In this document: positions 32,607-60,119 of the stretch, in pieces
How the letters are laid out: each line of letters starts with the position of its first letter
Position numbering within the stretch: position 1 is the first letter of the stretch
Assembly: GCA_045586685.1 (NCBI GenBank)
Contig: JAZNAU010000032.1
Coordinates: forward strand, 13,115 to 77,114
DNA from: Clostridia bacterium
GTDB lineage: Bacteria; Bacillota; Clostridia; HGM11514
Direction: 5' to 3'
Length of the DNA: 64,000 nucleotides
The notes under the pieces: generated by a model
Database searches by the model: none
What the model was told of the DNA's origin: nothing
Seen by the model: the letters and a program-made list of their open reading frames with translations, nothing else
Made by a program: the position numbers and the translations under genes

Positions 32607-35600
32607 TTATCGACATAATCCTTTTTGGCTTTTAATTTCTTCTTGAATGACTGATACATATCTTTCCGCATATCCTACGGAAACAGGATTATCCTTTCCT
32701 TCAATGAACAAATGTATATTGTTCTCATCCTTTTTAACGGCTACCACCTTCCCTGTTGTTATTTCCGGTATATCTATGGTCTTTCCCAAGAATTGGGAAT
32801 AATACAGTTCCATTTCATCAACAGTGGCATCTGACTCTAAATATTCAGGATTTCTTGAAACAAACATTTCATAAGCCAGTTCTTCAATTCTTTCTCCGCT
32901 GTCAAGACGTTTCCGGTCCTTTTCCTCCAACGGTAGGGAAAGATATTCCCCATTGACAATGGCAGAGATGAATGTATCCGATCCTTCTTTGAATCCTTTA
33001 TTTGTCTTTATATGTATATCTTCTATGGTTACATTTTTCTTTTCCTGTTCCTTATCTATTTCTTTCAGGGCATTCTTTATTTTTTGTTCCAATTCCTTTG
33101 CTTCCCGTTTCATTTCTGCAAGCAGTTTTTCCTTTCCCCATACCTTTCCTTGCAGTCCTTCAGTCATTTCCAGGATATTCTTCTTGTTTTTGGCAATTTC
33201 ATCTTCCATATATTCCGCCCTTTTCCCCAGGGAATTTCCTATGTCCTCCAGCCAACCAATGGTATCCGCATGGCTTAACGGAATTTTTCCACTGTTTGTA
33301 CTGTACATCCTACCGCTTTCCTTTCCTATTATGCCGAATCCGTAATATCCGAAGTCATCCTTTTTCATATATACATCATGTCCATTATAGGAACCTACTA
33401 TGATATTGTTAATGTTACTGCCTGTATGTTTGAGTTCATTCAAATATTTTCCCACTTCCTTTCCGTAGAGACTGTTTCCTTCCCTATCCTTGAATCCGTT
33501 CTTTTCTGAAGCAAGGAAGGAGTTATAATCTTTGTGCATGTCATTTGATGCTTTTGTCAGTGATTCATTCTTTTCCTTAAGATACTGGCATTTTCTTTCT
33601 GTATAGAGAATGTCTTTCTGAAAGAGCATCCGTTCCTTTTCCAACTGCTTGATTTTCTTGTCAAGCTTCGCTTTTTCAAGGAGGTCAGTATTACCGGATA
33701 ATATGGCCACATATTCCGCAAAGTTCATTCCGCTATTTTCGTCCATAGAACCTTCATCCATGGAACGGCTTCCAAGCTGTTGACTTTTCAGTTGGGTAAT
33801 GAACTGCTGTTTATTCTGCAATAGATTGAACTTGTAGGCATCCAAGGACATTTCCGTTGCATAAGTGATTATTTTTACTTTGTTTCCTGCAAATTCCTTT
33901 GCGACAATGTTACCTTTTCTGATGGCCCTTCCGTTCCTTTGTTCCAAATCGGACGGGACCCAGGGAGTATCAAGATGATGTACGGCAACTGCTCTTTTCT
34001 GTGCATTTACTCCAGTTCCGAGCATGGATGTACTTCCGAATGCAATTCTTACTTTGCCTTCCTGCATGTCTTCTATCAATTTCTTCTTCTGTTTTTCCGT
34101 CTTGCATTCCTGAATGAACCTTATTTCTGATTCCGGGATGTCGCAGTCTCTCACTAACTGCTCCTTTATTTCGGAATACACGTTCCATTCACCTTCCTTA
34201 TATGTTCCCAAGTCGGAAAATACGAACTGTGTTCCCTTGCAATGGTCGAAATCACAATATAGTTTATACAGTTCTTTCACACAATAGTCCACTTTCCCGT
34301 CTATTTCATCTGCATATTTGTAAGGATCAATCATTCGCATGTCAAGAGCCATCTTTCGTGCATAATCCGTTGCAATCAGCATCTTCGCCTTTTCTTCCGT
34401 TTCGGATAGTTTTCCCCTGCCGAGTAACTCCCCTTTTCCGGTTTTCGCAAATTCAATCAAGGTCTTGTTGAACTCCTGTTGTGCTGGAGTGGGAGGTATA
34501 TTTATAAAAATATGTTCAGCTTCAGGTCTGTCTATACCTATCATGTCGGCTGTTCTGTAATCCGTAATTTGATTATAAAATATGGCCAGTTCCGGAACTT
34601 TGACGAAATAACGGAACCGTTCTTTCTGTATGATGCTATTTGTAACGGAGAATTCGAAGTCTGTTGATTTTCGTGTATAGATGGCCGCCCATGCATCGAA
34701 ACATGTTATACCTTGTTTATCCAAGGCTTTTGGCCGTAGATATTTGAAAAGGGCATAAAGTTCCGTCAAGGAATTGCTTATTGTTGTTCCGGAAAGGAAT
34801 GTTGCTCCCAAATCCTTTCCCGTCCGTTTCTGTATGTCTCTGATAGCAAAGAAAAGGTTCAGTGCCTTTCCGCTACCGGTCGTATTCCCTATACCTGCTA
34901 CACGCTGGTGTCTGGTATTGAAAGTGAGGTTCTTGAACTTGTGGCTTTCATCGACGAAAATATGGTCAATGCCCATGCTTCTGAAATCAATGTTGTCATC
35001 TGTATTCTCGTTTATTTTATTGATAACCATATTCAGTTTGGCTGCAAGATTTTCTTTTCTTGTTTCCATTCCTTTTATGAGCTTCTTGCTTATGGAAGTG
35101 CCTGATTTTCCCAATACTTCCAGAGATTCTTCTATGTCATTGATTTCTTCGAGGAATATTTCCTTTTGGATTTCCAATGCCTGGGGTATTTTCTTGAACT
35201 GCTCATGGGTAAGGATAATGCAGTCCCAGTTGTTGTTCTTGATATCCTTGAACAAGGCTGCCCTTTTCTTGGGAGTGAAATCATCCTTTTGTGGATAAAG
35301 GATTTTTGCGTTCGGGTACGCTTTTTGAAAAGTATCCGCTATTTCGTGTACATTGGCCTTCAGAGCAATGATCATCGGTTTGTGTATCATTCCTATCCGT
35401 TTCATTTCATAAGCGGCCACACACATAATCATGGTTTTCCCAGAACCTACCTGATGGTCACATATACCTCCTCCGTTCTGTTTAATCATCCATATCGCAT
35501 CTTTCTGTGACGGATAAAGTTCCTTGTAGTCAAATTTGTCAAAGGACAGACCGGGGAAAGTCTGGCAGGAACCGTCATAATGTGGCCTGACAAAACAGTT

Positions 35601-38111
35601 GAACCTTTCGTTGTATGTATCTGCCAAAGCGTCCTTTGTCCTTACATCCCTTGCATCAAGCCATTCTATGAACCTTTCCTGCATATCCTGTATCTTGCTT
35701 GCCGCCAGTTGCGTAGCTTCCGCATCCACTTCCTTTGTTTTTTCATTTCCCTTATAGACTGTTTTCGTTATTTGCGGGAATGTATTGTACATGGCATTCA
35801 GCATTATGTCTTCCGCCGCCAGTTTCCATTCCACACCCCAAAGAGATTGGGCAGCGGATGAATATTCTTTCATCTTCACTGTAAACGTGTCCTGTCCGGT
35901 AAAATATTCTATTTTTGTCGGCACCTTGAATATTTCCGTTGCAAAATCAGAATAGATGTCACATGAAATCCATCTTTCGCCAAAATTGAAGTCCAGTTCC
36001 TCGAAGGGGATTTTTTCAGGCTTCCCTTCTTCCAGTGCTTTCAAAGAGTTTTCTATGTCTTCCTTATAATTTTCGCAGTATTCATCCATCAGGAAAGGTT
36101 TGAACTGATTTATCTTTTCATAGACATTCCCTGCAATCATTCTGCTTCTGATTTCCCATTCATCTTCTACCGGATTATATAGAATCCTGTCTTTTAATGC
36201 ATTGAGAATTTCTTCTTCGCTTTTCTTTGAATAATGTCCTATATATGTCAAATCAACTTTTCCGTTGAAGTTTAGCGAAGCTGCCAACGCTTCTTCAACG
36301 GTCATGGTTTCTTCTTCCTTGTTTTTACGGAATGAGACTGGTTCAGAAAAGATATCTGCCTTTATTCTCTTTCCGTTTTCGTATCTCTCAAGTGCAAGAA
36401 TTTCATCCGCCGCTGGATCCATCATGATAACAGGAGCAGCCTGTTTCTCTCTGAGACCACCGTATCTTTCCACAAAAGAATCATAGGCATCATTCAGCAT
36501 ATGACGGAATCCCTCGTTTTCTATCTGATGTTCATGTTCAAAATCGAAAAGTTCCCAGTATTTGTTCCGGATGGCAATATAGGATGAAAGGATATTTCTC
36601 TCGATAAGTGATATTCTTTCATGTGGGTTAAACATATATTTCCCGTTTTCGATGGAAAGTGTACCGACCTGTCCTTCATAATTTACGGTTATGCCGGTTT
36701 GATAATGGTTACTCCACCATGTGCCGTTGAATTCTCTTTTTCCTGTATTGCTTTGTAAAGGTACAGTATTCTGTTTCCTTTTCCTCTTTCCTGTTCCCTT
36801 AATCTGTGTTCTTTCTTCCGCTGTCAGTCCGAAAAGGTCAAAAAGAGACAGGATTTCCCCTCCAAGCACGTTCTTTGTGTCATCTTCTTTCCTTTCATTG
36901 CTTACCTTAACCCGATTCAGTAATTCTTTCTTGTATTTTTCCTTGAAGTCCCTATCAACAATATCTTTCAATTCATCAGCAATAATCACATCACAAGGGT
37001 CAAACTTAACAGTTATTTTTCCGAATCTGTCTGTAGTTTCATAAGGGTCACCTATATAGTTCGGGTAGTCCACCGGTGAAAACAGATAATCACCATTGAT
37101 ATATCTGTTTTGTGAAATCATACCGTAAATTCCTTCCTGCCCGTTTTCAAATTTCCGTACGTCCCATTCCCTTGTTTCCGTGAACATTCTCTCCTTTTCT
37201 GACATTCCATTTTTCCGGCTGTTCTTCTGAAGAATAATCAGGTCACTTCCTACTTCCACACCTGCTTCGGATTCAAACAGATTATCAGGTAGTCTGACAG
37301 CGGAAACAAGATTGGAATTTTGCATGAGATATTCCCTTATGGGTTTGTTCATCTTTGCATCCGCCAAACCTCTTGATGTTATGAATACAATCAGACCTCC
37401 TTCCTTTACGGCGTCCAGAGCTTTAACAAAAAAATAGTTGTGTATTTTAAGGGTAGAAGATTTCTTCACCTTGTCCTTTGAATTGGATAGTATCGGATCA
37501 AACACCCGGAAATCTCCGAAAGGGATATTTGATATGGCGAGGTCATATTTACCCATATCTGCAGCAGGTATAGTCTCGAACCCGGCTATATTAACTTTTG
37601 TTTCCGGTTCAAGGGATGTAAGTATGAGTCCTGTCAGTATATCTTTTTCATAAGCAGTCTTTTCCAACTTGTCCGCCGTTTCGGTTCCATCGAACGCATG
37701 AAGGAATCTTCCTGTTCCTGATGATGGATCTATCATGGTCTGTATTGCTCCAGGTGCTGCCTTTGATAGAATTTCTCCCAAAGTCTTGATGAAATATTCA
37801 GGAGTATAGAAAGCTGTAAGAACGGATGATTTTACACTTTCCATATATTCTTTTCTTTCTCTGTCGTCCTTCGTGTTTACTCCAATGATACGATTCAGCT
37901 CCACAACGGCAGGGTAAAGGGATTGGTCTTCTTTGCTCCAGTCTTTCACAGGTCTGGTGTCTATGACACATTTCAGCCCACCGAATCCGGTATATTTCTT
38001 TAGGATCTCCCGTTCCTCTTCATTTGCTTTCCTATTTTCCGCTTTAAGTTCAAAAGCTTTCTGTATAGCATGTATGTTAGCTATGAGTGCGGTTTTCTTA
38101 TTGTAGGCCAT
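32607..38111 (-). CDS. N6-methylase / SNF2 helicase fusion (DarB-like)
   Basis: 1834 aa. [43 protein letters not shown]. Confidence 0.9.
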
Positions 38112-38520
38112 ATTTTTCCAGATAAAGTTTGATAGAACCGGTAATGAGATAATAAAGTTTCATGTAATTGACACTATCCTGAAATTCGTCATCAATGTCC
38201 GGAAACTTCTTGAATTCCTCTTTGGTATATTCCATCATCTGCATGATGAATTCATGTTTCTCGTAGTCATTTATATCAAATTCTTCTTCTACAATTTCCT
38301 TCACCAAATCATAGGCTGAGAATTTCAAGTCTTTATAAAGGACAATTAAGGCTTCACGCTTCGCTTCATTAACATTCATGCCCATGTGCGAACAACGCTC
38401 GAATTCATCTTCAGCCAGTCCGCTTCTTGCATTGATGAATTCCGTGTCTTCAATTTTATCCGGGTGGTGCTGCACCATAAAATCCGTCAATACCAGTTTG
38501 AAATAAGATAGATGTTCCAT
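38098..38520 (-). CDS. DUF1896-like protein
   Basis: LSYFKL.L..FM..HHPDK..D.EFI..R. Sits upstream of the methylase/helicase, the usual position for this family. Confidence 0.75.
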
Positions 38521-39973
38521 TTGATTTTCTTTTTTTGTTTCTCCGCACAAAGAAAGCCCGGTTGGTTATCAAAAAAGGCACTTCTTCCTTTAATTTTTGA
38601 TGTTCCAATGACGGCATGATTCCGTAAAGTTCAAAATACACAAAATCATACAGTCTTTTCCTGCTAAGGAAAGGCTTGTATTCGTTTCTTTTCCGGAACT
38701 GTTCATGATACCTTCTCATGGTTATCTTCCAAGCGTACTGATGTTGTTTTTCCATTATCTTTCGGATGGAAGTGACTTTGGACAGGTCTTCTTCTATATG
38801 GAAGAAGAATTTCACTCTCGGATGCCGTTCTATCATGTTCCGGATATACTTCCTTGCGTTGAAGTGCTTGAGCATACCGAGATAAGAGTTTATCCTGCTT
38901 ACATAATCCTCTATCTTGTGGGTGTGCTTCATATAGTCGGGAAGCTCGTCAATATCCCGTAATACCCGACGGAACCCGCCACGAATTCTTTTTCCTGGTA
39001 ATAACGCCTTTCCCTTGATGATTGCACCCAAGAACGGGATTCCCTGTTTGTAATGCAACACCCTAATCTTGTCGGGATGGAGTACAAGACCCATTGATTT
39101 GAGGAATTCCTTTAACACCTTTACGATGTTCAGAAGAAATTCCTTGCTCTCATGAACGATGTAGAAATCATCCACATATCTGCCATAGAATCTTAACATG
39201 CTCTTGCAGAAATGGTCGAAAGGAGAGAGGTAGAAGTTACCGAGCATCTGTGAAGGCAATGCACCGATGGTAAGACCTTTCTTGTTGACATCCATATCCG
39301 CTGTATATTCACCGTCATAATCGCATGGTTTGGGTGCTCCGCAACACGAGAATACGGATTTGTTGTCAGGGAGCTCCCTCCATAATTTCCTGTTTCCACG
39401 AATCACTACATTGTTCAGCGGTGAATTGAACAGGAACACATGAAGCTGCCATAGCAACTTTTCCTTGTCATTATTGTGGTACTTTTCTTCCACGAACGCT
39501 TTCAGTTTCTCCCAAAGATTTCCACGGACTATACTCATGAAATAACCTTTGATGTCACCAAGAAGGATATAACAATCCTTTGTGAAATTGGCGGAGCATT
39601 GGGCAATGAACCTCTGCAATCGTTTGATACCGAAAAGGGTTCCCTTCCCCTTACGGCAGGAATAGCAGTCGTATATGAATTCCTTTTCAAAGAGAGGTTC
39701 CAACTTTTCAGATACGAAATGCTGGTCCACACGGTCCTTGAAATCCGGTGCGAAAATTTCACGAAGTACGGGTTTTGTAATAAGAAAGGTACGTGCCGGT
39801 AATGGGGCGTATGTTTCTGTTAGCAGTTCATTCCTCAGTTTTGGTAGAGCGGTCGTTATATGGAATGAAAATTCCTGTTCCTGTAGGGTGTTGCGTTTCC
39901 GCTTCCTGCAAGAACAATATCCATGATACAGTTCACCCATATCAACATCTGACTTCCGGATAGATTTAGCCAT
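38456..39973 (-). CDS. DGR reverse transcriptase
   Basis: REIFAPDFKDRV, YSCRKGKG, DIKGYFMSI, GLTIGALPSQ (DGR-type SQ motif) and YGRYVDDF. Adjacent to TR and avd. Confidence 0.95.
   Translation of the reverse strand: MAKSIRKSDVDMGELYHGYCSCRKRKRNTLQEQEFSFHITTALPKLRNELLTETYAPLPARTFLITKPVLREIFAPDFKDRVDQHFVSEKLEPLFEKEFIYDCYSCRKGKGTLFGIKRLQRFIAQCSANFTKDCYILLGDIKGYFMSIVRGNLWEKLKAFVEEKYHNNDKEKLLWQLHVFLFNSPLNNVVIRGNRKLWRELPDNKSVFSCCGAPKPCDYDGEYTADMDVNKKGLTIGALPSQMLGNFYLSPFDHFCKSMLRFYGRYVDDFYIVHESKEFLLNIVKVLKEFLKSMGLVLHPDKIRVLHYKQGIPFLGAIIKGKALLPGKRIRGGFRRVLRDIDELPDYMKHTHKIEDYVSRINSYLGMLKHFNARKYIRNMIERHPRVKFFFHIEEDLSKVTSIRKIMEKQHQYAWKITMRRYHEQFRKRNEYKPFLSRKRLYDFVYFELYGIMPSLEHQKLKEEVPFLITNRAFFVRRNKKRKSNGTSILFQTGIDGFYGAAPPG
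38548..38583 (-). promoter_or_regulatory. Class-1 promoter motif inside the RT 3' end
   Basis: AAGTGCC-TTTTTT-GATAAC-N13-TTTG, 28 bp before the DUF1896 ATG. Confidence 0.65.
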
Positions 39974-39997
39974 ATTGTCATTGATAGTATCTCCATA

Positions 39998-40122
39998 TCC
40001 CGCACGAACCGAACCCGATTGTTGTTGTTCTTATTGTTGTTGTTCACGTTGCCATTGTTGAAGTTCACGTTCCAGCCGTTGTTGGAAGAGTACTCTGAAC
40101 TACTCCAATAGTTGTTGGACGC
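39998..40122 (-). ncRNA. DGR template repeat (TR)
   Basis: 125 bp ungapped match to 41208-41332, with 17 AAC/AAT codons. Lies between avd and RT. Confidence 0.95.
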
Positions 40123-40247
40123 CAACCTTATCCTTTTATCCCGTGGGAAGGCTTCTTCCCAATCGTCTGTTAACCGGTCATCAGACCGGTAGATAAGCGA
40201 CATAAAGATACTAATTATCTTATTATTTACCTTTCGCTCTTTACCAG

Positions 40248-40619
40248 TTACCCTTCTGTAACCGGCACTTTAGCGGTCTTGTTTCTGAATCCGTTAATTT
40301 GTCTCTCTACGGAATCCAGTCTTTCCAATATGGCAGGGAAATCCTTATGCTGGAATAGTCCGAGTTGATGAGCTACATCCACCAATGTTTTCAACTCCGT
40401 CAGGTGTTCCATGAATACATCGAAAAAAGCCATTTTCTTTTCATAAATATCTTCTGTATATATATGGTAAAAATCCATAGGTAGATGGAGTGCTGAAGAT
40501 GTGATTCTTTCACCGAAAGTATATCGGTACTGGCGTGATGTCTTACCCATTGCTCTTTCTATCTCTGCTGTCAGTTCCACGGTCTGACGGTATAGAGGAA
40601 GTGAATTATATTGTCCCAT
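40248..40619 (-). CDS. avd: DGR accessory variability determinant (Avd, four-helix bundle)
   Basis: 123 aa. LPLYR..YRYTFGERI..QINGFR, directly upstream of the TR. Confidence 0.85.
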   Translation of the reverse strand: MGQYNSLPLYRQTVELTAEIERAMGKTSRQYRYTFGERITSSALHLPMDFYHIYTEDIYEKKMAFFDVFMEHLTELKTLVDVAHQLGLFQHKDFPAILERLDSVERQINGFRNKTAKVPVTEG

Positions 40620-40620
40620 A

Positions 40621-41094
40621 TCATTTCAACATATTCTGCCAATCGTTAATAAGCGTAATTGCTGCAACTGGTGTGAGTGTACCCAAATTCAGTTTCTTTA
40701 GCTGTTCGATAACTTCCTTTTCCCTATTGTTATTGGAAACGGTTATCACTTCATTCTTTCTCTTTCCTCCGCTTTTTTTGATGACATGGACATTCGTAAT
40801 ATCTTCAAGAGTTGTTTTTATTTCGTCACATTCAATCTCGATGTATTTTTTGAATTCTCCATTTTCATCTTTCAATGTAATGTTTTCAAGCATGGACGAA
40901 TTCTGAACGATACCGATACGGAGATACCAATCTCCGTTTTTCAGTTCATGTTTGAGAAAAACGACACTGCCGTTTATAAAATGACTGAAGCGTACAGCGG
41001 AATGGTTGTACGCTACATAGAAGATACCTTCTCTATAAAGTCGGATGATCTTTTCACCCGACTTTTCTAATGCTAATTTTTCTTTGACTTCCAT
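40621..41094 (-). CDS. MutS-like DGR accessory protein
   Basis: IRLYREGIFYVAYNHSA (MutS domain I-like) and LNLGTLTPVAAITLI (MutS C-terminal-like). Confidence 0.7.
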   Translation of the reverse strand: MEVKEKLALEKSGEKIIRLYREGIFYVAYNHSAVRFSHFINGSVVFLKHELKNGDWYLRIGIVQNSSMLENITLKDENGEFKKYIEIECDEIKTTLEDITNVHVIKKSGGKRKNEVITVSNNNREKEVIEQLKKLNLGTLTPVAAITLINDWQNMLK

Positions 41095-41155
41095 TGTTTT
41101 TTGCTGTTTGACAGCCTATATTTATTTTCTGACAATCATATTGCTTTTCTGACGA

Positions 41156-41179
41156 ACCCTGCCCCGAAAAGGGCAGGGT
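41156..41179. other. GC-rich hairpin downstream of the VR (IMH-associated or terminator)
   Basis: ACCCTGCCC-CGAAAA-GGGCAGGGT, a perfect 9-bp stem about 22 bp after the target stop. Confidence 0.75.
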
Positions 41180-41200
41180 ATTTATAAAGAAACTAAAGAT

Positions 41201-47181: not shown

Positions 47182-47868
47182 TCATCGGCTCATTCTGTCA
47201 ATATCCCTCTTTATCTGATTCTTGATGTTTTCACAGTTGACAAGCATATAATATTCCTTCGGTGCGAGATGACGGGCTATGTCCGCCCATCGGTACACCC
47301 TTATTTGATATTTCAAGGCTGTCAGGTTGCGGTTGATGGTGGAAAGTCTTCTGGTCACTTGTGTAAGGATCATGTTTCTTTCCGCAGAATTAAGTAGAAC
47401 GGTTCCGTCGCTTTTAGTTACCAGTCCGGAGATATAGCCATAAAGGGCACTTGTTTCCTGTGTTATTTTTGAATATTGTTTGGAAACCACGGTAGAAACG
47501 ATAGCACCCTGTGGATGTCCGACAATGGCGTCCGTACATCCTCTAAGATTGTTGTATATCTGAGTTATCAGATCTCCGCAACGGTAGATATCATATGCGT
47601 TTCTGATAATGCTCTGTGTTTCCTTCAGATAATTGTACATCTTTTCTTCATATTGTCGGATTTCATCCAACTGGACAGATATGCCGGTATTGATACCGAT
47701 AATCTGCAGCTGTTTGTCGTTTTCCTTCTTCAACTGGTTTTCCAGTGTTGTCTTCTCAAGTGCGACCGCTGCCGTCAGTGCCGGGTCAGTCTGTATCTGT
47801 GCCTTTGTCGTTTGTCCTATTGCCGCCAACAGAAAAAGGCATAATAATTTAGCGATTGGTGATTTCAT
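47182..47868 (-). CDS. Secreted conjugative-transfer protein (TraI-like)
   Basis: Signal peptide, TDPALTAAV and LLNSAER. Predicted helical. Confidence 0.6.
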   Translation of the reverse strand: MKSPIAKLLCLFLLAAIGQTTKAQIQTDPALTAAVALEKTTLENQLKKENDKQLQIIGINTGISVQLDEIRQYEEKMYNYLKETQSIIRNAYDIYRCGDLITQIYNNLRGCTDAIVGHPQGAIVSTVVSKQYSKITQETSALYGYISGLVTKSDGTVLLNSAERNMILTQVTRRLSTINRNLTALKYQIRVYRWADIARHLAPKEYYMLVNCENIKNQIKRDIDRMSR

Positions 47869-48319
47869 AGATTTTCTTCTTCTCTTTACATTGTTCGACA
47901 TGGGTACTGAGGAATTCCACAATTCTTACGTTTTCCTGTATACCGAAAATTATCAGAATCGGATGGCTCTTGTCACCGGATGTTATGACCACTTCCTTTA
48001 TCCCGAATATTTGTTGGATAAAGTTCTGCTGTTCTCTATAGTCTATTATCCGGTACAGTTCCATATAATCCGTTGTACGTTGGAAAATGCCTCTTGCAAA
48101 CTTTATCTGTGTTTCCGAGATTGACCAGGTGATGGTATTCAGGTAATACAGTCTGCCAAGCAGATATGCGAAGCATCCTAATGATACTGCCAATCCGCAT
48201 AGCATGAAGAATTTGTCCGGTAATCCTATGCATATTGTGGATACCGCCCATAGCAGCAAGCATCTGAATCCGTCAACGAACAGTTGCTTCATGGAAGGTT
48301 TCAGAATTATTTGGTTCAT
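47849..48319 (-). CDS. Membrane protein with bacterial PH domain
   Basis: Two TMs, then RGIF...ELYRIIDY..QQIFGI..DKSHP. Confidence 0.8.
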   Translation of the reverse strand: MNQIILKPSMKQLFVDGFRCLLLWAVSTICIGLPDKFFMLCGLAVSLGCFAYLLGRLYYLNTITWSISETQIKFARGIFQRTTDYMELYRIIDYREQQNFIQQIFGIKEVVITSGDKSHPILIIFGIQENVRIVEFLSTHVEQCKEKKKIYEITNR

Positions 48320-49950: not shown

Positions 49951-51543
49951 TTATCTCTTCAATCCTCTTTCGGTCAGTTCATTTATACCTTTCGGGAAGT
50001 ATTTCTCCGCCAGTTCCTCCTTTGACAGCTTTCCTTCAATGAATTTCTTCATTTCATTCTTCCTGAGTCTCTCTGCCGGTAGATAGTTCCCGTCCATCTT
50101 CACCCGTATCAAAGCCGTCCCGTCTGCAGTCGGTATGATGTCTATTTTCTGCCAGACTTTCCTGTTGTCCTCATACCCGATGAACGGTCTACGTTCATTG
50201 TTTTCAAGTATTCCTTCGTCGGATGCGGATTTCCATCCGATACCGTCCGATATGACACAGTCAGCAAGTTTGACGGTTCTTCCGCTTGCCCTGTTAACAA
50301 GTTCGTTCAGGTAGCTTGCACTCATCATCATCCTGTTCTCCGTATCTTTTCCGTAGATGATGGCAGCACATCCTCCGGCTGTGATGGTAGTATCCGCCAT
50401 ATAGTCAGCAATCCTTTCAAGGTTGCTTTTTGACAGTTCGCTGACCGGTATATGAAAGTTTCCGAGCACTTTCATGTTTGCGTTTAGAACAAGGAATGCA
50501 TATTTTTCCCTTTCTCCGAACCGTTGGGAAGAAAGGAACATGGCCACGTCCCTGCTGCATGTTATCTGCATCATGTCAAGCAGTTTGTATTCCTTATTGA
50601 ATACCATCCGGTCGAAGGAGAATACTGGAATTTCCACCATATCCTCATTCTTCTGTCTTTCATCAAATACAAAGCAGTCCTGTATGCTGTCGCTGAATAT
50701 TCCGTATGCACCGGTATCACTGTTTAGAATGATACCCGGTTGCAGCTTGTTCCCGAAAGATTCCTTCATCCGCATCCAAAGTTCCTTGTCTTCCATGGAC
50801 GCAAGTACTCTTCCCGACGGATGGTTGTGAACCAGATATATTTTCTCCGGTTTGAATTTCTTGTTTGCTTTCACTGCAGCCGCTACATCCACTGCTGTCG
50901 AGAGCATGGAACCTATACCCGTTTCGAGAATGATACATTCCTTGCCTTTCGTCATGACGATGAAGGAATGTTCCGTACTCTTGCTTTCCAGTTGACGGAA
51001 TATCCATGCCACATCTTCTGCATTCCGGATCCTTTCTCTTCCCATGAATGAAAAGTTTCCTTTCAGAGTGAATACCCTTTCAGCATGTGACATGTTCCCA
51101 GGCATCAGTCTCTTACCGAAATCCTCGTCAAATGCCGTCATCCGTGAAGCGGTATTTCCTTTTCTATTCATGAACTTTGCATATTCACCTTTATGTACTT
51201 CTATGATACGGTTGATTTCTCCCGTATCGGTTACATTTCTTTTTTTCCTGTTTGCAAAGGCCGCCATTGACACATCCGTTGACCTGTCAGGCTTGAAGTT
51301 GCCAAGGAGGAACGCAACCTGTTTGTCGCTTCTTCCCTCCATCCGTCCGGTATTCCCTATATGATAGTCCTCCAGTACAAGATTCCCGTTTTTCTTTGGG
51401 GATTCCCTATACCGGTCTATTGCTGCTGAAAGCCATTCTTTCCAAATATTTTCCCTGTCCTTTTCTTCATATATGTCAGTGACGAGTATTTCCGTTTCCG
51501 TTTTCAACAGAATTACGCCTCCGTAAAAATTTCCCTTTTCCAT
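49951..51543 (-). CDS. JAB/RadC-domain protein
   Basis: HNHPSG...S.ED motif plus a second degenerate RadC-like unit and the shared C-terminal domain. Confidence 0.8.
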   Translation of the reverse strand: MEKGNFYGGVILLKTETEILVTDIYEEKDRENIWKEWLSAAIDRYRESPKKNGNLVLEDYHIGNTGRMEGRSDKQVAFLLGNFKPDRSTDVSMAAFANRKKRNVTDTGEINRIIEVHKGEYAKFMNRKGNTASRMTAFDEDFGKRLMPGNMSHAERVFTLKGNFSFMGRERIRNAEDVAWIFRQLESKSTEHSFIVMTKGKECIILETGIGSMLSTAVDVAAAVKANKKFKPEKIYLVHNHPSGRVLASMEDKELWMRMKESFGNKLQPGIILNSDTGAYGIFSDSIQDCFVFDERQKNEDMVEIPVFSFDRMVFNKEYKLLDMMQITCSRDVAMFLSSQRFGEREKYAFLVLNANMKVLGNFHIPVSELSKSNLERIADYMADTTITAGGCAAIIYGKDTENRMMMSASYLNELVNRASGRTVKLADCVISDGIGWKSASDEGILENNERRPFIGYEDNRKVWQKIDIIPTADGTALIRVKMDGNYLPAERLRKNEMKKFIEGKLSKEELAEKYFPKGINELTERGLKR

Positions 51544-51556
51544 AATCGACCTTCAT

Positions 51557-52270
51557 TTATCTTTTCATTGTCCGTCTGCCGGCTTCTTCCATTCCGGAAG
51601 ACATGTCTTTCGACGGTTTTTCCTCCCTTGCTCTTTCTGTGATGGAACCGGTGATGCTATAATGGGGGATTCTGCTTCCCTCGGTAATGATGCTGCCTTC
51701 CTTTACGGTTACCTCATTGCCTATTGTCGTACCGTTTCCTATTTTTGACATACTTTCTATACGTGTCTTTTCTCCTATAAAAAGATTGTCGCCCAGTTCC
51801 GAATGTTCCTCCACCTCTGAGCTGTTGTTTATGATGCTGTATCTACCTATGGTACAATGCCCTGCTATATGGCAGTTTTTCCCGATTTCCCCTCCTTCCT
51901 TGATGGTCACATCATTTTTCACGAAAGCATTGAAACCGACAAAAGAATCCTTCTCCATTGTCACGTTTCCCAACAGGCAGGCTTTTTCCGCAACTATCGC
52001 CATATTGCCGATTTTGCATCCGCTCCCAATATATGCACCTTTATCGATGACCGCTTCATCCCCTATTGATGTTCCGTTTTCAATGGTGCATCCATCGCCG
52101 AGCATGGTCATATAGCCGAGTTTGACCGTTTCTCCTATGCGTATTTTCCTTTCTTCCAGTTCAGGCATAATTTCACTGATGGAATAGAATCGTCTTTCTC
52201 TCCAGTCATTCATGTTCCCCTCCTGGAGATACACTACGTTCCTTCTTGTATTTTCATCGTTTCTTTCCAT
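51557..52270 (-). CDS. Hexapeptide-repeat (left-handed beta-helix) protein
   Basis: Long run of [IV]GxxxxI repeats. Tail GRRTMKR. Confidence 0.8.
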   Translation of the reverse strand: MERNDENTRRNVVYLQEGNMNDWRERRFYSISEIMPELEERKIRIGETVKLGYMTMLGDGCTIENGTSIGDEAVIDKGAYIGSGCKIGNMAIVAEKACLLGNVTMEKDSFVGFNAFVKNDVTIKEGGEIGKNCHIAGHCTIGRYSIINNSSEVEEHSELGDNLFIGEKTRIESMSKIGNGTTIGNEVTVKEGSIITEGSRIPHYSITGSITERAREEKPSKDMSSGMEEAGRRTMKR

Positions 52271-52271
52271 C

Positions 52272-53426
52272 CTATCTTTTGTGGGAAACAACCCTTTCCC
52301 TATTGTTCGTCAGTTCTGATTCGAAATATTTTGCGGCAAGCAATATCTTGTCCTTTCCTCCGAGCATTTCTTCCTTGTCCTTTTCGGTCATTTTGCAGCC
52401 CAGTGTCGCTTTTCCGTCCAGAAAGCATCTTATATTGATTTTTCCGTCCGATGACGGATAGAATCTCACATTTTCGATTCTCTTGTACAGGGGCTTTTCC
52501 TTATGGATTGAAAGGATGGATGAAAGTCTTTTCTCCTCCCCTTTCCGTATATCCATTCCTTTGATTATTTCCATCACTTCCCGGTACGGGACATTTTCTA
52601 TCTGGAGATTGTCAAGCATGTCCGTCCTTAACGGAACCCTTACCCTTACCCCCTTCATGTCTTCATTTCCGTTCAGCATGACCGTAGCGGCATTCACATC
52701 CGACGGGTATCCCCTGTTTCCGAGCATATTGCTGTAATAGGTATGTGAATCCGCGAATATTTGGGAATAGTCTTTTGGAAGCAATGCCAGTGATGCTTTA
52801 AGTTCCCCGTATTGAACCAGTAAATCATTGTTGAAGTCGTCCAATAATCCGTCAAATTCCCGTTCCTCTTCATTTTGTGATTCACATTGTTCCATTTTAA
52901 CAAGATGTGCAATGCTTTCTTTGGCAAGGTTTATTTCCACTCCTTCAGGGAATAATGAAAGTAATCTTTCAGTTACATCATTATTGTCGTAGAGGATGAC
53001 TTCCTTCCCTTTTTCAATCGTTTCCAATTCCGCTTTCGGATATTTCCTGATGATTCTATCGAGGTAGTCATCGCCCGAAAGGACCAGTTCACACCTTCTG
53101 ACCATTTCTTCCGCTATAGCCTTTGCTTCATTCTCCCCGAAAGCGGAGATGTCCACCTTTTTCTGTAGAACTTCAATGACGGAGAACAGATGTTCCTTTT
53201 CACCCGACAACTTCTTTGGCAAGGTCTGTTCAGTCAAGTAGAAGAAGTTTTCATTCTCCGCTGTGAAATTCCTTTCAATGAAATCACCGTCATCAAGTAC
53301 AATTTCTTCTTTTTGTATGCGTTCATCAAGGATTCTTTCCGCTTCCGTACTGTTTTCCGCTTTGATGGAAATGTCCCTTGCAAGAAGTTCCGTTACGGTT
53401 ATCTGATAAATCTTGTTTTCCTTCAT
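52272..53426 (-). CDS. DpnD/PcfM-like tandem-domain protein
   Basis: Two V.E.L...V.I.A....EA......EIVL...D[FY] units plus the shared C-terminal domain. Confidence 0.7.
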   Translation of the reverse strand: MKENKIYQITVTELLARDISIKAENSTEAERILDERIQKEEIVLDDGDFIERNFTAENENFFYLTEQTLPKKLSGEKEHLFSVIEVLQKKVDISAFGENEAKAIAEEMVRRCELVLSGDDYLDRIIRKYPKAELETIEKGKEVILYDNNDVTERLLSLFPEGVEINLAKESIAHLVKMEQCESQNEEEREFDGLLDDFNNDLLVQYGELKASLALLPKDYSQIFADSHTYYSNMLGNRGYPSDVNAATVMLNGNEDMKGVRVRVPLRTDMLDNLQIENVPYREVMEIIKGMDIRKGEEKRLSSILSIHKEKPLYKRIENVRFYPSSDGKINIRCFLDGKATLGCKMTEKDKEEMLGGKDKILLAAKYFESELTNNRERVVSHKR

Positions 53427-53471: not shown

Positions 53472-56075
53472 TTATCTTGAAATTCCTTTCTTCACTTCCT
53501 GTTTCTGCCCATCCAGCTCGTTCTTGAAATATTTTGCCGCCAGTTCCGCTTTACGCATTTCCTTGTCTTCCGGCGACATTTCCTTGAATCCCTCAAAGAA
53601 GGCTCTTGTATGTTGCGGTCTTACTCTTGTACCGGTCATCTGCACGCCGTCGATCTTGCAGCGGACAGCATAGGTCTTCCCGTCCTGCATCTTGTACACG
53701 CTTGTATCGGTAATCCTTGCCTTTGTTTCCGGTGTTATTTTGGGCAGCGGTTTCGGGAAATAGAGTGCCTTCAGCTGTTCCCTTCGTTTGTTGACTTCAT
53801 CTATACCCTGTCCTTTCAAACCTTCGAAATACTGTTTCGTGTCTTCGTCGGACATCTGGCGAGTCTTGCTCCGTACACCGTTTTCCACAAAATAGACACC
53901 ATATTTCCCATTGTCCATCTTATAGACGTTGATACCGTCCTTCATTTCTTTCTTAGATTCATTTTTTTCTTCCATATCCATATCTGTTTTAGAGTTAGAA
54001 ATTCCATTTTCCTGTTGTATTGCAGCCATTCTGTCCTCTTTTTCCTTCAGCATCCTTGCTGCATAGTCTACCAGTTCCTCTTCCGTCAGCCATTGCGGCT
54101 TTTCATCCAGGCTGTACCAGAATCCTTTCATAGCCTGTATCTGTTCTTCTACATTTTTTGCCCACAGCTGTTCTTCGGACCCGTGATTTTCAAGATAATA
54201 TTTGCAGTCCTCCACCATTCTTCCGAGAAGCATGTAACTATGCCGGACATCTCTTTCATCCGTCACAGTTTTTTCCTGTATTTCCCCTCTTTCCATGGTT
54301 TTGTTCTTTTCGTATTCCTCGATATCCATATATTTTTCAGGTTCATCGGAAATGATAGTCCTTCCAGAACATACATAATGTTTGCCTTCTACCGTTTCCA
54401 ACGAATATCTCTGTTCTGCACCGGAAACGGGATTAAGTTCGATTTTGCTTGGAGGATTCAAAGGATCCAATGCCAGTTTTCCGTCATCTGCAAGCAAGTT
54501 ACCTGTTCTTGCGGTTTCTTCTATCCTTGCCTTGTTCTCCGGTGTGAACTCCTTGTATATGGTAACTTGTCTGTCGCATGATATATGTCCCTTGTATTCG
54601 AGATCGCCCTCTTCCCAAAAGGAAATTCCGTTTCCGAGATAAGCGGAATGGAGCTTCTTTCCTTGTTCCGTCGATACATTCCTCCTCAGTTCTGCAGGCG
54701 GAAGATCGCATATGGCCACTTTCTCCCCTGCACGCACCAGTTTCGGCAGGAAAGTATCAAGCATCTCAGCCGGGAACGATGCGTAGGGTATCTTCCTTTC
54801 ATCCCCGAAGTCCCTGTTGCTACGTATGATACCGAGCAGTTCTGCACATCTTATTGCATCCGCGTTGAAAACCTCATACACTTTCGTGTTCCTGAAAAGC
54901 AATATGGCGTTCGGGAAGCGTTTTTTCAGCGTTTCAAAGGAAAGCCGGTCCGTATTGTCATTGTCGCTTCCTGCTGTCCTTCTTGCAACTGCATCCTTGA
55001 TGCTGAAATTCTCCAGCTCGGAAACTGAAGGAATACGTTTGGCGTTCTCTTCATTCCTCCTTTCTATGAATTCGCCTATATTTTTTATGGTGTTTTCCTT
55101 AATTTTTTCCCTTACTTCCTGGTTGCATACATTTTCCTGTATCATGTTTGCCGCCTTGGAGACATCTCCGAGTATGCTCATGATGAATTGCGGTTGTTCC
55201 TTCAGCGTGTCTATCCATGATTGCAGATAGGCGACATTGTTATCCTGTATGGTGGAAGTCAGCCCCATAACATTCATGCTCAATGCCGCCGTCAATTCTG
55301 CAACCAGTTCTTCCCTTGCATAGCCTTTATCCCCGAAGGTATTGTTCATTTCCCTGTTCAACCTTTGCTCCGAACCGGTGGAATGGGCCATTTCATGAAG
55401 TAATGTCCCATAGAATTCCTCCCCGTCCTTGAATTGTTGTTTCAAAGGTATGGTGATGCTGTCTTTGGAAATACTATAGAATGCACTGTTGGATTTTGTC
55501 ACATTCACGGGACATATCCATGAATTGTTCTCCAGCATATAGTCCAGTTCCGGGCATACGGTTATACCTTCATTGTTGACAAGTTTTGAAAGATTGAATC
55601 TTTCCTTTATTTTCTCCCACCTTTCCGGTTTCGCTTCCGGGAGCGTTGTCTGTTCCACATTGAAGACGTTGAAGTATTTGATGAACGGTACAACCTTATA
55701 CCGTTCTTTCTCCGAATCAGAAAGTTTTCTGTAATCATCTATACTTATCCTTTCTCCGGATTCTCTGTCTTTTACTGAAAAGTTCCAGAAATGCACAGGA
55801 AAGGATGTTTCTCCTTTCTTTACGGAAACGCCTTCCTCCATTGCTTGCTTGAATGTCATATATACGGGTGTGGTATATTTCTTTTCTTCCTGCAACATGA
55901 GCAGCATAAGGCTGTTCCAGCCGCCATATGCTCTTCCGTTCAAGTTTTCAGGGAGTGCGGCAGCCGTACAGTTCAGCCAAGGCTGTTTCCAGTCAAGAGC
56001 CATGCTTTCCATTTTCCTTATCATCATTTCCGCAAATACGGTGATGTTCTTGTCTTCAATTCTGGAATTCTTCAT
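53472..56075 (-). CDS. ArdC-family polyvalent protein (ssDNA-binding + zincin + MutS-I-like + LPD11-like)
   Basis: WKQPW, GRAYGGWN, YMTFKQA, FNVEQT, HEMAHSTG, YAREELVAE, LVRAGEKVAICD and YMLLGRMVEDCKYYL. Confidence 0.85.
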   Translation of the reverse strand: MKNSRIEDKNITVFAEMMIRKMESMALDWKQPWLNCTAAALPENLNGRAYGGWNSLMLLMLQEEKKYTTPVYMTFKQAMEEGVSVKKGETSFPVHFWNFSVKDRESGERISIDDYRKLSDSEKERYKVVPFIKYFNVFNVEQTTLPEAKPERWEKIKERFNLSKLVNNEGITVCPELDYMLENNSWICPVNVTKSNSAFYSISKDSITIPLKQQFKDGEEFYGTLLHEMAHSTGSEQRLNREMNNTFGDKGYAREELVAELTAALSMNVMGLTSTIQDNNVAYLQSWIDTLKEQPQFIMSILGDVSKAANMIQENVCNQEVREKIKENTIKNIGEFIERRNEENAKRIPSVSELENFSIKDAVARRTAGSDNDNTDRLSFETLKKRFPNAILLFRNTKVYEVFNADAIRCAELLGIIRSNRDFGDERKIPYASFPAEMLDTFLPKLVRAGEKVAICDLPPAELRRNVSTEQGKKLHSAYLGNGISFWEEGDLEYKGHISCDRQVTIYKEFTPENKARIEETARTGNLLADDGKLALDPLNPPSKIELNPVSGAEQRYSLETVEGKHYVCSGRTIISDEPEKYMDIEEYEKNKTMERGEIQEKTVTDERDVRHSYMLLGRMVEDCKYYLENHGSEEQLWAKNVEEQIQAMKGFWYSLDEKPQWLTEEELVDYAARMLKEKEDRMAAIQQENGISNSKTDMDMEEKNESKKEMKDGINVYKMDNGKYGVYFVENGVRSKTRQMSDEDTKQYFEGLKGQGIDEVNKRREQLKALYFPKPLPKITPETKARITDTSVYKMQDGKTYAVRCKIDGVQMTGTRVRPQHTRAFFEGFKEMSPEDKEMRKAELAAKYFKNELDGQKQEVKKGISR

Positions 56076-56097
56076 GATAAATCCATTTTTCCGTCAT

Positions 56098-56832
56098 TTA
56101 AAAGGTTCTTCCCCTTGAATAACCTTTTCCTCTTTCCTGTTCCCTTTCCCTTTCCATTTCTTTCCGGTATTCCCATCCGTTTTCGGAGGTCTGCCAATAT
56201 CCTGTTGCACCCGGTGTTATTCTGTCCCATTCAATTAGTTTCTTAATTCTCCATTCGTCAAGGTCACCTTTGATGACCTTGAATCCTGTACGGTCATTGA
56301 GATCTACACCAACTGTTACGGTCGTATCTTCCATATGGATTTCGACAGGTTCCCCGTTCCGTAAGCGTTCTTTCTGTTCTCCACCGATCACTGCTTCCCC
56401 TATGGCATCAGGTATATGTATTTCACTTGCCTTTACATGCATGACAGTGTTCGTTTCCTTGTCAAGCTGGAGGTAGCACCGTTCCGTCCCGTTCCCTCTG
56501 TCTATGGATTTAACTATGGTTTGGTTGTCTTTAAGCTTTCCCAGTTCCTTCTCTGTCAATGAAAAGTCATTTCTTATTTCCTTCATTGAAGGGAATATTC
56601 GTAGTGCGGTCGTACCGTCCGCATTCCTGTGGAGCTTAACTTTTGCAGGAAGGGAATAAATCTTCCCGTTCTTGCCTTCAATACTGAGTTTCATCAATGG
56701 AGACAATCTGCCTGTAAGTAGATTGTCCAATGCTTTCTTTGGCAGATCAAGGAAAGCTTCTTTCGCTATGCCGTATTGTTCCAGCTCTCCGAATGGTATT
56801 TCTTTTGCCTTAAACAAGTTTTTCATATTCAT
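56098..56832 (-). CDS. DUF4099/DUF3945-like conjugation-associated protein
   Basis: EIPF.ELEQYGI..LLTGRLSP, YLQLDKETN. Tail ERGKGYSRGRTF. Confidence 0.7.
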   Translation of the reverse strand: MNMKNLFKAKEIPFGELEQYGIAKEAFLDLPKKALDNLLTGRLSPLMKLSIEGKNGKIYSLPAKVKLHRNADGTTALRIFPSMKEIRNDFSLTEKELGKLKDNQTIVKSIDRGNGTERCYLQLDKETNTVMHVKASEIHIPDAIGEAVIGGEQKERLRNGEPVEIHMEDTTVTVGVDLNDRTGFKVIKGDLDEWRIKKLIEWDRITPGATGYWQTSENGWEYRKEMEREREQERGKGYSRGRTF

Positions 56833-56848
56833 AAAAAGAATAAAATGA

Positions 56849-56869: not shown

Positions 56870-56886
56870 GTCTAAATATTCATTAT

Positions 56887-57579: not shown

Positions 57580-57604
57580 AATCATTGAAAAGCTTGTGTA
57601 ATGG

Positions 57605-57749: not shown

Positions 57750-57766
57750 ATGTGCATTCGCCGTCC

Positions 57767-58446: not shown

Positions 58447-58511
58447 AAGTCAGTCAAATTTTAATTATAACAATTTAATTGTATTGTTTTCTATTCATGA
58501 ACTTTGCATAT

Positions 58512-60119
58512 TCACCTTTTCAGTGTACATTTCTTCGTGTTATCAAGCTCGTTCTTGAAATATTTCTCCACCAGTTCCGCTTTCAGATTGGCTATGTCCG
58601 ATTTGTTTCCGGACAACTTCACTTCTTCATATCTTTTTTTGTCCTTTTGGGAAAGATTCTCACCCATCTGCCAGTTACCGTCGATCTTGCACCGGATTTT
58701 GGTTTCCATGGCAGATTTGATAATGGTTATATCAGAAATCCTTTCCTTTCTTTCGTTGGAACTGTTTGTGTTCACAGATTCGTTCTTCACTTTTTTTTGA
58801 ATGATTTTTTCCGGAGGAAGCAACAGCCTATGATTGTTTGCAATCAGATTGGCATGATTTTCATGTACGCCACAATTCTTTGCATATTCCTTCCATCTGC
58901 TGACAACATCCACAATTTCCCCAATGATGTAGTCTGTATTCTTTATATCCATTCTTGAACCGACTTCTGTCAAATCGGACCATTTAAAATTGTCCTTTTT
59001 TCCGTTTATGGACATTTGATGAGTATCTGTCCATTGTCCTTTCGGAGAATAGGCATAACAGATATCATAAGCAGGAGAGAGAGTCCATTTTCCTTTTCTG
59101 TCCATGAGGAAACTATGATTCTTTGTGTGGTCATCATGATTTCTGGAAATTACATTGAACACCATTCTACGGAAGAATTGTTCCATTTCATCATAGTTCA
59201 GTCCCAATTTTCGCATAACCAGGAATGCTTCTTCATATGAATGGAGTGCATTCCTGTCATAATGGGCTATAGCTGCCAATGTCTGGGAATGTATCTTTTC
59301 CCCATTGTCCGTCCGGTCAAATCTTTTTGTCATGAAATGATAAGAATCCCGTTCCTGAAGCAATCTGCATTCAGTCATCTGAATGTTACAATCAACAGCC
59401 ATTTTATGGTAGGCGTATTCAATGTTTCCTATCCCTTTGGGATGATCAATTTTTTCCCCGTTCTCTTCAAATGTAGTGCCGTCAAATTTCAACAGCCAAT
59501 ATGTGAATCCTTCCGGTGCCTTAACCTGCCCCGACCGTACTTCATTTGTCCGCTCATCAATGGCGATAAGGGCTTTAGGTTTTGCTCCACCGGCTGAAGT
59601 GCCTACTTTCAATATATCCAATATGGCTTTATCTTCCTGTCTGATATTTTCTTTGAAAGCTTCTCTGTCGCGGAATACCTTGTCTGCCAAATCAACGAGA
59701 CTTTCCATTCTTAGAACCGTTGATTCATTCAGTTCCTTGATATCCCTGCTCGGATAAAATTCCAAAGCTCCCATTGCCCTGCAACCTATATAGCAAAGTC
59801 GGTCCAATGGCGTGATACTTCTATCCGATACGCCACGGGCGGCAAACCATGTATCAATGATTTCATTCCCGTACTTGTCCGGAAGTGAATCCGCTATCAT
59901 TCCGGGTAATCCCTTAAAACAATCATTCTTGTTGGTAGGGAATGTATAGACGAAATCCATCAATGATTTTTTCAATGGCATGATGATTGGAGAAACATTG
60001 AGTCCGGTCCTGAAGAAATCGGGATAATATTGGAACTCCGCCAAACCTCTTTTTTCGTTCCATGACAATAGTCCTACATTTTTGCCATACAGTTTAACGT
60101 CAACTACCAGTTCATTCAT
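58512..60119 (-). CDS. hipA: HipA-family kinase toxin with extra C-terminal domain
   Basis: DSLPD, GTSAGGAKPK, WLLKFD, KRFDR, NHDDHTKNHSF and LSPAYD, followed by an extension of about 100 aa. Confidence 0.92.
   Translation of the reverse strand: MNELVVDVKLYGKNVGLLSWNEKRGLAEFQYYPDFFRTGLNVSPIIMPLKKSLMDFVYTFPTNKNDCFKGLPGMIADSLPDKYGNEIIDTWFAARGVSDRSITPLDRLCYIGCRAMGALEFYPSRDIKELNESTVLRMESLVDLADKVFRDREAFKENIRQEDKAILDILKVGTSAGGAKPKALIAIDERTNEVRSGQVKAPEGFTYWLLKFDGTTFEENGEKIDHPKGIGNIEYAYHKMAVDCNIQMTECRLLQERDSYHFMTKRFDRTDNGEKIHSQTLAAIAHYDRNALHSYEEAFLVMRKLGLNYDEMEQFFRRMVFNVISRNHDDHTKNHSFLMDRKGKWTLSPAYDICYAYSPKGQWTDTHQMSINGKKDNFKWSDLTEVGSRMDIKNTDYIIGEIVDVVSRWKEYAKNCGVHENHANLIANNHRLLLPPEKIIQKKVKNESVNTNSSNERKERISDITIIKSAMETKIRCKIDGNWQMGENLSQKDKKRYEEVKLSGNKSDIANLKAELVEKYFKNELDNTKKCTLKR

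Follow-up and report, generated by a model that had tools for sequence, protein, structure and literature searches.

The 64,000-nucleotide stretch analysed here (the window; positions 13,115 to 77,114 of contig JAZNAU010000032.1, hereafter C32, in the Clostridia bacterium assembly GCA_045586685.1) encodes four unrelated proteins, an ArdC-like polyvalent protein, a HipA-like kinase, a RadC-like JAB protein and a DpnD/PcfM-like protein, that end in a common C-terminal domain of ~75 residues followed by a short basic tail. A first-pass annotation of the window had proposed that this unit is a modular translocation domain marking a protein payload sent along with the DNA. We propose, at a probability of roughly 55%, that the domain and its tail together form a two-part signal by which proteins are recruited to the plasmid's type IV secretion system (T4SS), which is of Bacteroidota type, a reading that draws on the strictly terminal position of the unit, a tail that belongs at the free end of the protein, a small folded module, a diverse cytoplasmic cargo, and runs of tagged genes on elements with one clade of type IV coupling protein (T4CP).

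The four proteins lie on the minus strand of the window and were assigned with Pfam and hidden Markov models (HMMs). The ArdC-like protein (867 aa, 53472..56075), with ArdC-N, MPTase-PolyVal, MutS_I and LPD11 domains, carries the shared domain as a tandem pair (101.6 and 112.4 bits), the terminal copy at ~53475-53729 and the upstream copy at ~53715-53963, and ends in the tail KKGISR. Single copies close the HipA-like kinase (535 aa, 58512..60119; domain at residues 455-535, ~58515-58757; tail CTLKR), the RadC-like JAB protein (530 aa, 49951..51543; residues 459-530, ~49954-50169; tail RGLKR) and the DpnD/PcfM-like protein (384 aa, 52272..53426; residues 310-384, ~52275-52499; tail VSHKR). Compared pairwise by BLASTP, the C-terminal segments give 28-46 bits. 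When leave-one-out HMMs were searched against the 27,593 six-frame open reading frames (ORFs) of the 1.55-Mb genome bin to which the contig is assigned, the omitted protein was each time the next-best match (E 3.6e-13 for ArdC, 2.2e-10 for HipA, 1e-8 for JAB and 1.9e-6 for DpnD), while the best unrelated ORF reached only E >= 0.022. Since each protein is recovered by HMMs to which it did not contribute, this test of homology is not circular, and judged from their sequences the homology of the domain and its modularity across the four proteins are real. The common unit that the first-pass annotation had read on these four proteins is borne out by these values, its boundaries agree with ours to within ~10-30 nt, and the second ArdC copy that it had placed upstream is recovered by the HMM as the tandem copy. 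No further copy was found in HMM scans of the ORFs of the 1.55-Mb bin.

The domain belongs to a wider family. A profile built from the five copies in the window and searched against 1.84 billion representative proteins united these copies and retrieved 149 clusters at E <= 1e-3 (24 at E <= 1e-10), with lengths from 71 to 7041 aa. Positions and copy numbers were taken from the same five-copy profile, with a lenient cut-off for each copy. In 129 of the 149 proteins no more than 6 residues separate the last copy from the C-terminus, and in 87 that copy is exactly terminal; one copy is present in 88 proteins, two in 40, three in 20 and four in 1. The proteins end in Arg in 109 cases and in [GSAT][LIMVF]xR in 93, and the last 12 residues have a net charge of +1.6 on average, so that the C-terminal location with positive charge that is looked for in T4SS substrates is present here.

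The tail itself behaves as a feature of the protein terminus. That it ends in R, as the first-pass annotation had stated, is confirmed and can be generalised to [GSAT][LIMVF][KRSGHC]R at the C-terminus, with the family-wide consensus E-Q-S/N-R/K/Q-G-L/M/I-K/R-R. This four-residue motif ends 5 of the 77 ORFs on the plasmid contig and 2 of 1304 elsewhere in the genome (Fisher p 9e-6); with the four domain proteins set aside, it still ends 2 of 73 (DarB and a hexapeptide-repeat protein) against 2 of 1304 (p 0.016), whereas a plain terminal R is not enriched in the non-domain ORFs of the contig (5/73 vs 73/1304, p 0.60). Among the 237 copies found with a 28-sequence HMM, the motif follows 85 of 123 terminal copies and 2 of 114 internal ones; therefore, the tail is a property of the protein terminus and not of the repeat unit. 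It also stays terminal when detached from the domain, as an ORF of genome G549 has two domain copies, then MutS_I, and then the end ...THRGIHR, and the family member P0128 likewise has MutS_I between the domain and the terminal tail.

The tail may also occur without the domain. The hexapeptide-repeat (LbH) protein (244 aa, 51557..52291, minus strand; Pfam) is a tail-only candidate that ends in RRTMKR, and relatives of it elsewhere (P0091, P0121 and P0145) bear the full domain. Four endings of neighbouring proteins had been listed as tails alone; RTMKR fits the motif, but SRGRTF, RGGRKL and KGMGI do not. The SRGRTF ending belongs to a DUF4099+DUF3945 protein (244 aa, 56098..56832, minus strand; Pfam), and although it falls outside the motif, an ortholog (L033:1108-1974; phmmer E 1.2e-65) ends in TQGRGMRR. 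A bPH_2 protein of the window (47849-48319, minus strand) ends in ...KIYEITNR and its orthologs in loci L010 and L027 in ...GIYEITNR, a conserved Arg-terminal end of a pattern other than the family tail.

The fusion-partner survey bears out the expected link to anti-restriction, polyvalent and toxin modules. When 145 matches were scanned with Pfam at E <= 1e-5 (two proteins of >5000 aa omitted), 50 had a Pfam family and 95 had none. The commonest cargoes were ArdC-N in 19, usually with MPTase-PolyVal, and MutS_I in 16; the others included LPD11, LPD23, LPD3 with ART-PolyVal, MuF_C, PBECR3, Fic, AbiEii, NTP_transf_2, RadC/JAB, DpnD-PcfM, hexapeptide/LbH, N6_Mtase with Helicase_C, DUF6047, DUF4116, DUF3945, DUF6926 and DUF5712. 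Polyvalent proteins have been predicted to be delivered with DNA, as set out in the main text of Iyer et al. 2017 (PMC5512222). Fusions of HipA to the domain recur in several loci. On a contig from the viral collection IMG/VR (L034:5906-7492, minus strand) a HipB/HipA set, in which one ORF encodes the N-terminal and another the C-terminal part of HipA, lacks the domain although four neighbouring genes are tagged, and HipA therefore occurs both tagged and untagged. Since several cargoes are of toxin type (HipA, Fic, AbiEii, ART and nucleases) and the signal is strictly C-terminal, the unit might instead govern stability or regulation, for instance as a degron at the C-terminus or as a docking site for an inhibitor, and so restrain a potentially toxic payload in the donor. 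However, most of the identified cargo is non-toxin (ArdC-N in 19 of 145, and methylase-helicase, LbH and DpnD proteins), and a degron needs neither a conserved folded domain of 65 aa nor tandem copies, which makes this explanation improbable. To our knowledge, bacterial C-terminal degrons are non-polar and do not end in K/R-R.

The cargo is cytoplasmic, since a signal-peptide-like N-terminus was found in only 1 of the 148 matches that start with Met, namely P0148, a carbohydrate esterase that is likely a false positive. In the AlphaFold2 model of the domain (28-sequence alignment; mean predicted local distance difference test score, pLDDT, 78.5), three strands precede helices at residues 35-43, 50-64 and 66-71, and a disordered tail starts at residue 73. 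The domain has no counterpart in the libraries searched: no Pfam-A family at E <= 10 consistently covers the five window copies, the domain segments give no consistent match in NCBIfam or PHROGs at E <= 1, a sequence profile search of the PDB gave an unrelated best match at E 0.14 and no chain of XVIPCD, the signal domain of Xanthomonadales effectors, at E <= 10, and Foldseek against the PDB returned nothing at E <= 1e-3. The best hit of the wide VIA-align search (6irx_A, Z 5.3, rmsd 4.8 over 64 aligned residues) lies within the noise range of that tool. In the ESM Atlas the best score of 0.86 is below the useful threshold and can serve as a lead only, with neighbours named conjugal-transfer, PcfB, DUF4316 and DUF3849. 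A tblastn search of the PLSDB plasmids with the two-copy ArdC tail gave no match.

In Bacteroidales, the host lineage of these elements, C-terminal sorting domains of similar length serve type IX secretion, which speaks for a signal that addresses another export route, whether a type IX secretion C-terminal domain or a tag for vesicle loading. But Sec-dependent type IX export requires the signal-peptide-like N-terminus that 1 of 148 matches has, no sorting-domain family was matched at Pfam E <= 10 or NCBIfam E <= 1, the predicted fold is mixed strand-helix and not a beta-sandwich, and the cargo consists of DNA-directed cytoplasmic enzymes, so that such a route is very improbable. On the first three of these grounds we rejected the type IX secretion C-terminal domain as the known system to which the unit could belong.

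The genomic contexts place the domain on conjugative elements. In locus searches, which used a closer 8-sequence alignment, the named records with the domain were all Bacteroidales, comprising an uncultured Phocaeicola metagenome-assembled genome (MAG; 7 loci) and two Bacteroides isolates, and metagenome contigs together with one IMG/VR contig contributed 9 further loci. Tagged genes often stand in series: in locus L012 a HipB-like gene and a tagged HipA follow a run of five consecutive tagged genes, runs of four and five consecutive tagged genes occur in L026 and L029, and the arrays over these three loci span 2-6. Two loci (L010 and L027) are syntenic with the window over the Toprim, bPH, 246-aa protein, M23 and ArdC genes. 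A location mainly outside conjugative elements, which would have spoken against a translocation domain, was not found; every context examined is the payload region of a Bacteroidales conjugative element, and on the window contig itself VirB4, pilin, TraJ/M/N, T4CP and relaxase genes stand alongside the domain genes.

In the four genomes that were checked, the domain is carried on, or close to, elements with a single clade of coupling protein. The Phocaeicola MAG (G412; 2.1 Mb; loci L006, L008, L009 and L011-L014) has 31 domain matches over many contigs, and its single T4CP, 66% identical to that of the window contig, lies 1.6-8 kb from five of them; its tagged repertoire is unusually large for one genome. 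In Bacteroides sp. 519 (G414), the sole domain gene is on the same contig as the only T4CP of the same clade (55% identical), whereas seven other T4CP-like loci (31-37% identical) are on other contigs or far off. Two domain ORFs of G549, missed by the genome-wide domain search and found with a broader HMM (E 5.7e-16 and 1.8e-5), lie 12 and 21 kb from a T4CP of this clade. In the sample of 300 other Bacteroidales genomes, the domain was matched once and weakly (G681, E 5.8e-4), and the T4CP clade occurred in one genome (G549). The pattern over these four genomes fits a pairing of the domain with one T4CP clade.

A co-fold of T4CP residues 136-719 (24-sequence alignment, 23 rows used) with the domain (28-sequence alignment) scored 0.43, 0.40 and 0.55 in three runs (median 0.43), against 0.00 for each of three controls, with a partner pLDDT of at least 79 and a contact agreement between runs of at least 82%. 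Of 80 solved complexes, 58 reach the mark that it passes, as do 2 of 110 mismatched pairs, but a score <=0.60 was obtained by just 7 of those solved complexes and by each of the two mismatches that passed. The modelling with the coupling protein that the first-pass annotation had suggested therefore came out on the favourable side of the mark (0.43, best control 0.00), yet in a weak band where, according to the tool, most passes are wrong if the prior was not high beforehand. It lends weak support to binding of the T4CP by the domain, a predicted contact whose odds it raises a little and which it does not prove.

The weakness of that band weighs against the recruitment signal, and so do several other observations. 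The relaxase, although an obligatory T4SS substrate, was found to lack the domain in HMM searches of the genome ORFs, its own C-terminus being KKRRRR. Two to four tandem copies in 61 of 149 proteins and the 114 internal copies are unneeded by a pure signal and would suit a binding repeat, and the same holds for the 21 of 149 matches that are <=131 aa long, small stand-alone proteins. HipA adjoins a HipB-like gene in the window (60112-60426, upstream of HipA; Pfam), and for it an ordinary addiction role suffices. One domain locus comes from the viral-contig collection IMG/VR; no phage structural families were found among the 9 ORFs scanned on that contig. Moreover, the association with the T4CP clade rests on four genomes, and no co-occurrence statistic could be derived because the 300-genome sample holds too few positives.

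Several of these features, together with the co-occurrence of the domain with the DNA-binding modules ArdC-N and MutS_I, would suit a binding or adaptor module that works inside the cell, either as a tether to the transferred DNA, the relaxosome or a common plasmid-encoded partner, or in oligomerisation, with the tail as part of the interaction; the lack of a match to any known fold is compatible with such a role. However, nothing in a binding repeat would call for a position at most 6 aa from the C-terminus in 129 of 149 proteins, or for a motif on 85 of 123 terminal but 2 of 114 internal copies; the tail-only proteins and the MutS_I-separated tails suggest that the terminus is read on its own; and the cargo is too diverse for a single biochemical target. 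We therefore regard an adaptor as fairly unlikely and keep the two-part recruitment signal as the preferred reading. The earlier idea of a translocation domain that marks the payload stands to this extent, that each part of its proposed test that could be computed turned out favourable, while the relaxase without the domain, the internal copies and the stand-alone small proteins are ill-suited to a pure signal.

The two-part architecture resembles that of known T4SS signals. A BID domain with a positively charged tail is described as a two-part T4SS signal (10.1101/2024.03.25.586700), the toxins FicT and PezT occur fused to BID, and of these fusions VbhT (FicT+BID) is reported as translocated by a conjugative T4SS and PezT+BID is proposed as a T4SS substrate (PMC5675462). 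Like BID, which is described from Bartonella Beps and from rhizobial plasmid relaxases and toxins, the unit here combines a folded domain with a short basic tail at the C-terminus and is modular, on unrelated cargo including toxin-antitoxin toxins, and carried by conjugative plasmids (10.1101/2024.03.25.586700; PMC5675462; PMC6509941). Unlike BID, it sits in a T4SS lineage of Bacteroidota type with a YWFCY T4CP, the relaxase of the plasmid is without the domain, its tail has the defined terminal motif G-hydrophobic-K/R-R, and there is no Pfam or PDB-sequence match, the window domain being homologous to neither BID nor XVIPCD. Some Beps carry multiple BID copies. BID is a four-helix bundle, whereas the predicted fold here has three strands plus helices, and no BID chain was among the Foldseek and VIA-align rows, a missing match that is no proof of a different fold.

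In the XVIPCD of Xanthomonadales killing T4SS effectors, the folded part is described as binding the all-alpha domain of VirD4, and the disordered tail is also needed for translocation (PMC8740702). The family here is likewise a conserved C-terminal domain made of a folded part and a tail on diverse proteins, but it differs from XVIPCD (~120 aa, glutamine-rich tail) in its ~75 aa and its basic tail ending in Arg, shows no sequence or fold match to it, and is found on anti-restriction and polyvalent proteins of conjugative elements instead of periplasm-acting killing toxins with immunity proteins. Agrobacterium VirB/D4 substrates have an Arg-rich C-terminal consensus. For VirB/D4 substrates and for the internal TSA/TSB domains of the relaxase TraI, the coupling protein is described as recognising either basic residues at the C-terminus or a signal domain with a fold of its own (PMC3912908); the motif, the folded-domain family and the machinery lineage all differ here. 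With the LPD and polyvalent proteins of Iyer et al. 2017, the family shares the partners ArdC-N, MPTase, MutS_I, LPD3/11/23, ART, PBECR and MuF_C, but neither an LPD nor another Pfam model matches the domain, and LPD11 on the ArdC-like protein (residues 612-675) lies upstream of it; the main text of that study, as distinct from its supplementary lists, names no C-terminal T4SS signal (PMC5512222). In the literature searched (supplements excluded), we found neither a description of such a domain nor a substrate-recognition signal for the Bacteroidota-type T4SS.

The first-pass annotation had counted five unrelated proteins with the unit; four are solid, and the fifth, the DarB-like methyltransferase-SNF2 helicase (1834 aa, 32607..38111, minus strand; Pfam), is only borderline. 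Its putative degenerate copy, located by hhalign and HMM at residues ~1684-1750 (~32862-33062, minus strand), the position given before, reaches 8.3 bits with the 28-sequence HMM and, with a 197-copy HMM, 14.4 bits (E 0.045 genome-wide), the top match outside the family. By hhalign, its probability was 41% (E 2.8e-4) for the single sequence and 8% (E 4.5e-3) with four orthologs, so that three added orthologs brought it down and not up. A single-sequence model of low confidence (pLDDT 55.7) has the same strand-strand-strand-helix-helix order as the domain at residues ~1684-1750 and a shorter strand-strand-strand-helix unit ahead of the tail, which in this model might be a truncated second copy. 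Comparison of orthologs that are 58-89% identical over the C-terminal 195 aa revealed a conserved 15-residue C-terminal tail (32610-32654, minus strand), nearly invariant even in those only 58-59% identical over that length. P0059, a DarB-like protein from outside the window whose core is 43% identical, has a clear domain copy at its end. We therefore treat the window DarB, from its sequence, as a borderline case of a degenerate copy with a preserved tail, of which homology is not established.

The window is the final 64 kb of the 77,114-bp contig C32, one of 56 contigs of the bin, and this contig is a Bacteroidota-type conjugative plasmid. Its T4SS, encoded in full together with the T4CP, includes a VirB4-type ATPase (Bacteroides 'TraG'; 575..3472, minus strand; Pfam, with 52% identity to Bacteroides/Phocaeicola plasmids), and just upstream of the window TraJ, TraM, TraN and the coupling protein (contig C32:2252-9976; Pfam). 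The coupling protein, a VirD4 homolog of 719 aa (contig C32:2252-4411), has YWFCY, T4SS-DNA_transf, TrwB_AAD_bind and TraG-D_C domains. A NikA-like accessory protein and the MobA/VirD2-type relaxase are encoded at 15196..17252 on the plus strand (Pfam), and the contig further has genes for a DUF4134 pilin, Mfa-like fimbrillins, a Rep3 initiator, ParA, topoisomerase III and a C5 methylase (Pfam). The transfer operon is interrupted between the VirB4 and pilin genes by genes for an Mfa-like fimbrillin, an Mfa2-like protein and a DUF3575 protein (3996-11003, minus strand). The payload genes form a long minus-strand block from ~22 to 60 kb of the window, which encodes the DarB-like methylase-SNF2 helicase, a diversity-generating retroelement, a Toprim/DUF3991 protein, JAB/RadC, the hexapeptide-repeat protein, DpnD/PcfM, the ArdC-N + MPTase + MutS_I + LPD11 polyvalent protein, the DUF4099+DUF3945 protein, HipB and HipA. 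In addition, a 278-aa protein (46341-47177, minus strand) is made up of three Toprim_Crpt repeats and a PADR1-type zinc ribbon, and a Toprim_Crpt repeat also ends topoisomerase III (23570-25684).

The retroelement on this plasmid is intact (38456-43318), with a reverse transcriptase gene at 38456-39973 and an Avd-like gene at 40248-40619. Its 125-nt repeat pair comprises a template repeat at 39998-40122 and a variable repeat at 41208-41332, and 21 of 21 mismatches between them fall at template adenines. The variable repeat makes up the lectin-like Lcl_C region that ends an Mfa-type fimbrillin (41201-43318) at its C-terminus, which suggests a diversified adhesin, possibly for mating contact. 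A second small Lcl_C ORF adjoins the coupling-protein gene (L015:4419-5084, minus strand, on contig C32 upstream of the window) and could be diversified by the retroelement as well.

Contig C32 is probably not native to its bin. None of 11 other genomes from the order of the bin, and none of 400 from its phylum, had a match to the shared domain. The YWFCY family of the T4CP was likewise found in none of 100 other genomes from that phylum, with a Bacteroides thetaiotaomicron control positive. The GC content of contig and bin is alike (0.399 vs 0.411), a similarity that could explain mis-binning. No terminal overlap was found when circularity of the contig was looked for. The doubtful host assignment leaves the domain finding unaffected.

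In the mechanism that we propose for the two-part recruitment signal, the folded module (three strands, then two to three helices, ~65 aa) would dock on the cytoplasmic part of the YWFCY-type T4CP, and the unstructured basic tail, which would have to lie at the free C-terminus (E-Q-S/N-R/K-G-hydrophobic-K/R-R-COOH), would engage the translocation channel. Tagged cytoplasmic proteins could then be exported into the recipient during mating, among them an ArdC-type ssDNA binder/metalloprotease, a DarB-type methylase-helicase, JAB/RadC, DpnD/PcfM and toxin-type enzymes such as HipA, and these delivered proteins would act in the recipient before any plasmid gene is expressed. The analysis shows the homology of the domain, its strictly C-terminal placement, the restriction of the tail to the true terminus, the diversity of the cargo, the lack of Sec-type N-termini and the location on elements with one T4CP clade; that the T4CP is bound, and that the cargo is translocated and acts in the recipient, we infer.

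In conclusion, this work describes a C-terminal domain and tail that may recruit cargo to the Bacteroidota-type T4SS, the machinery behind much of the gene flow in the human gut. As a tentative extension, which we hold to be possible rather than probable, the domain and its G-hydrophobic-K/R-R tail might be a portable address label, and a family of gut Bacteroidales plasmids and integrative and conjugative elements might act as injectors of dozens of pre-made effectors alongside their DNA, including kinases, Fic proteins, ADP-ribosyltransferases, nucleases and many proteins without a known family. If this is true, the delivered proteome of such elements would be readable from sequence alone. 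The two-part signal itself would be a third independent case of a folded domain plus tail, after BID and XVIPCD. A sequence-defined tag would make the question of which proteins travel with the DNA computable and testable, would flag many candidate anti-defence or host-takeover effectors (95 of 145 without a Pfam family), and would offer a handle for sending proteins from one gut bacterium to another.

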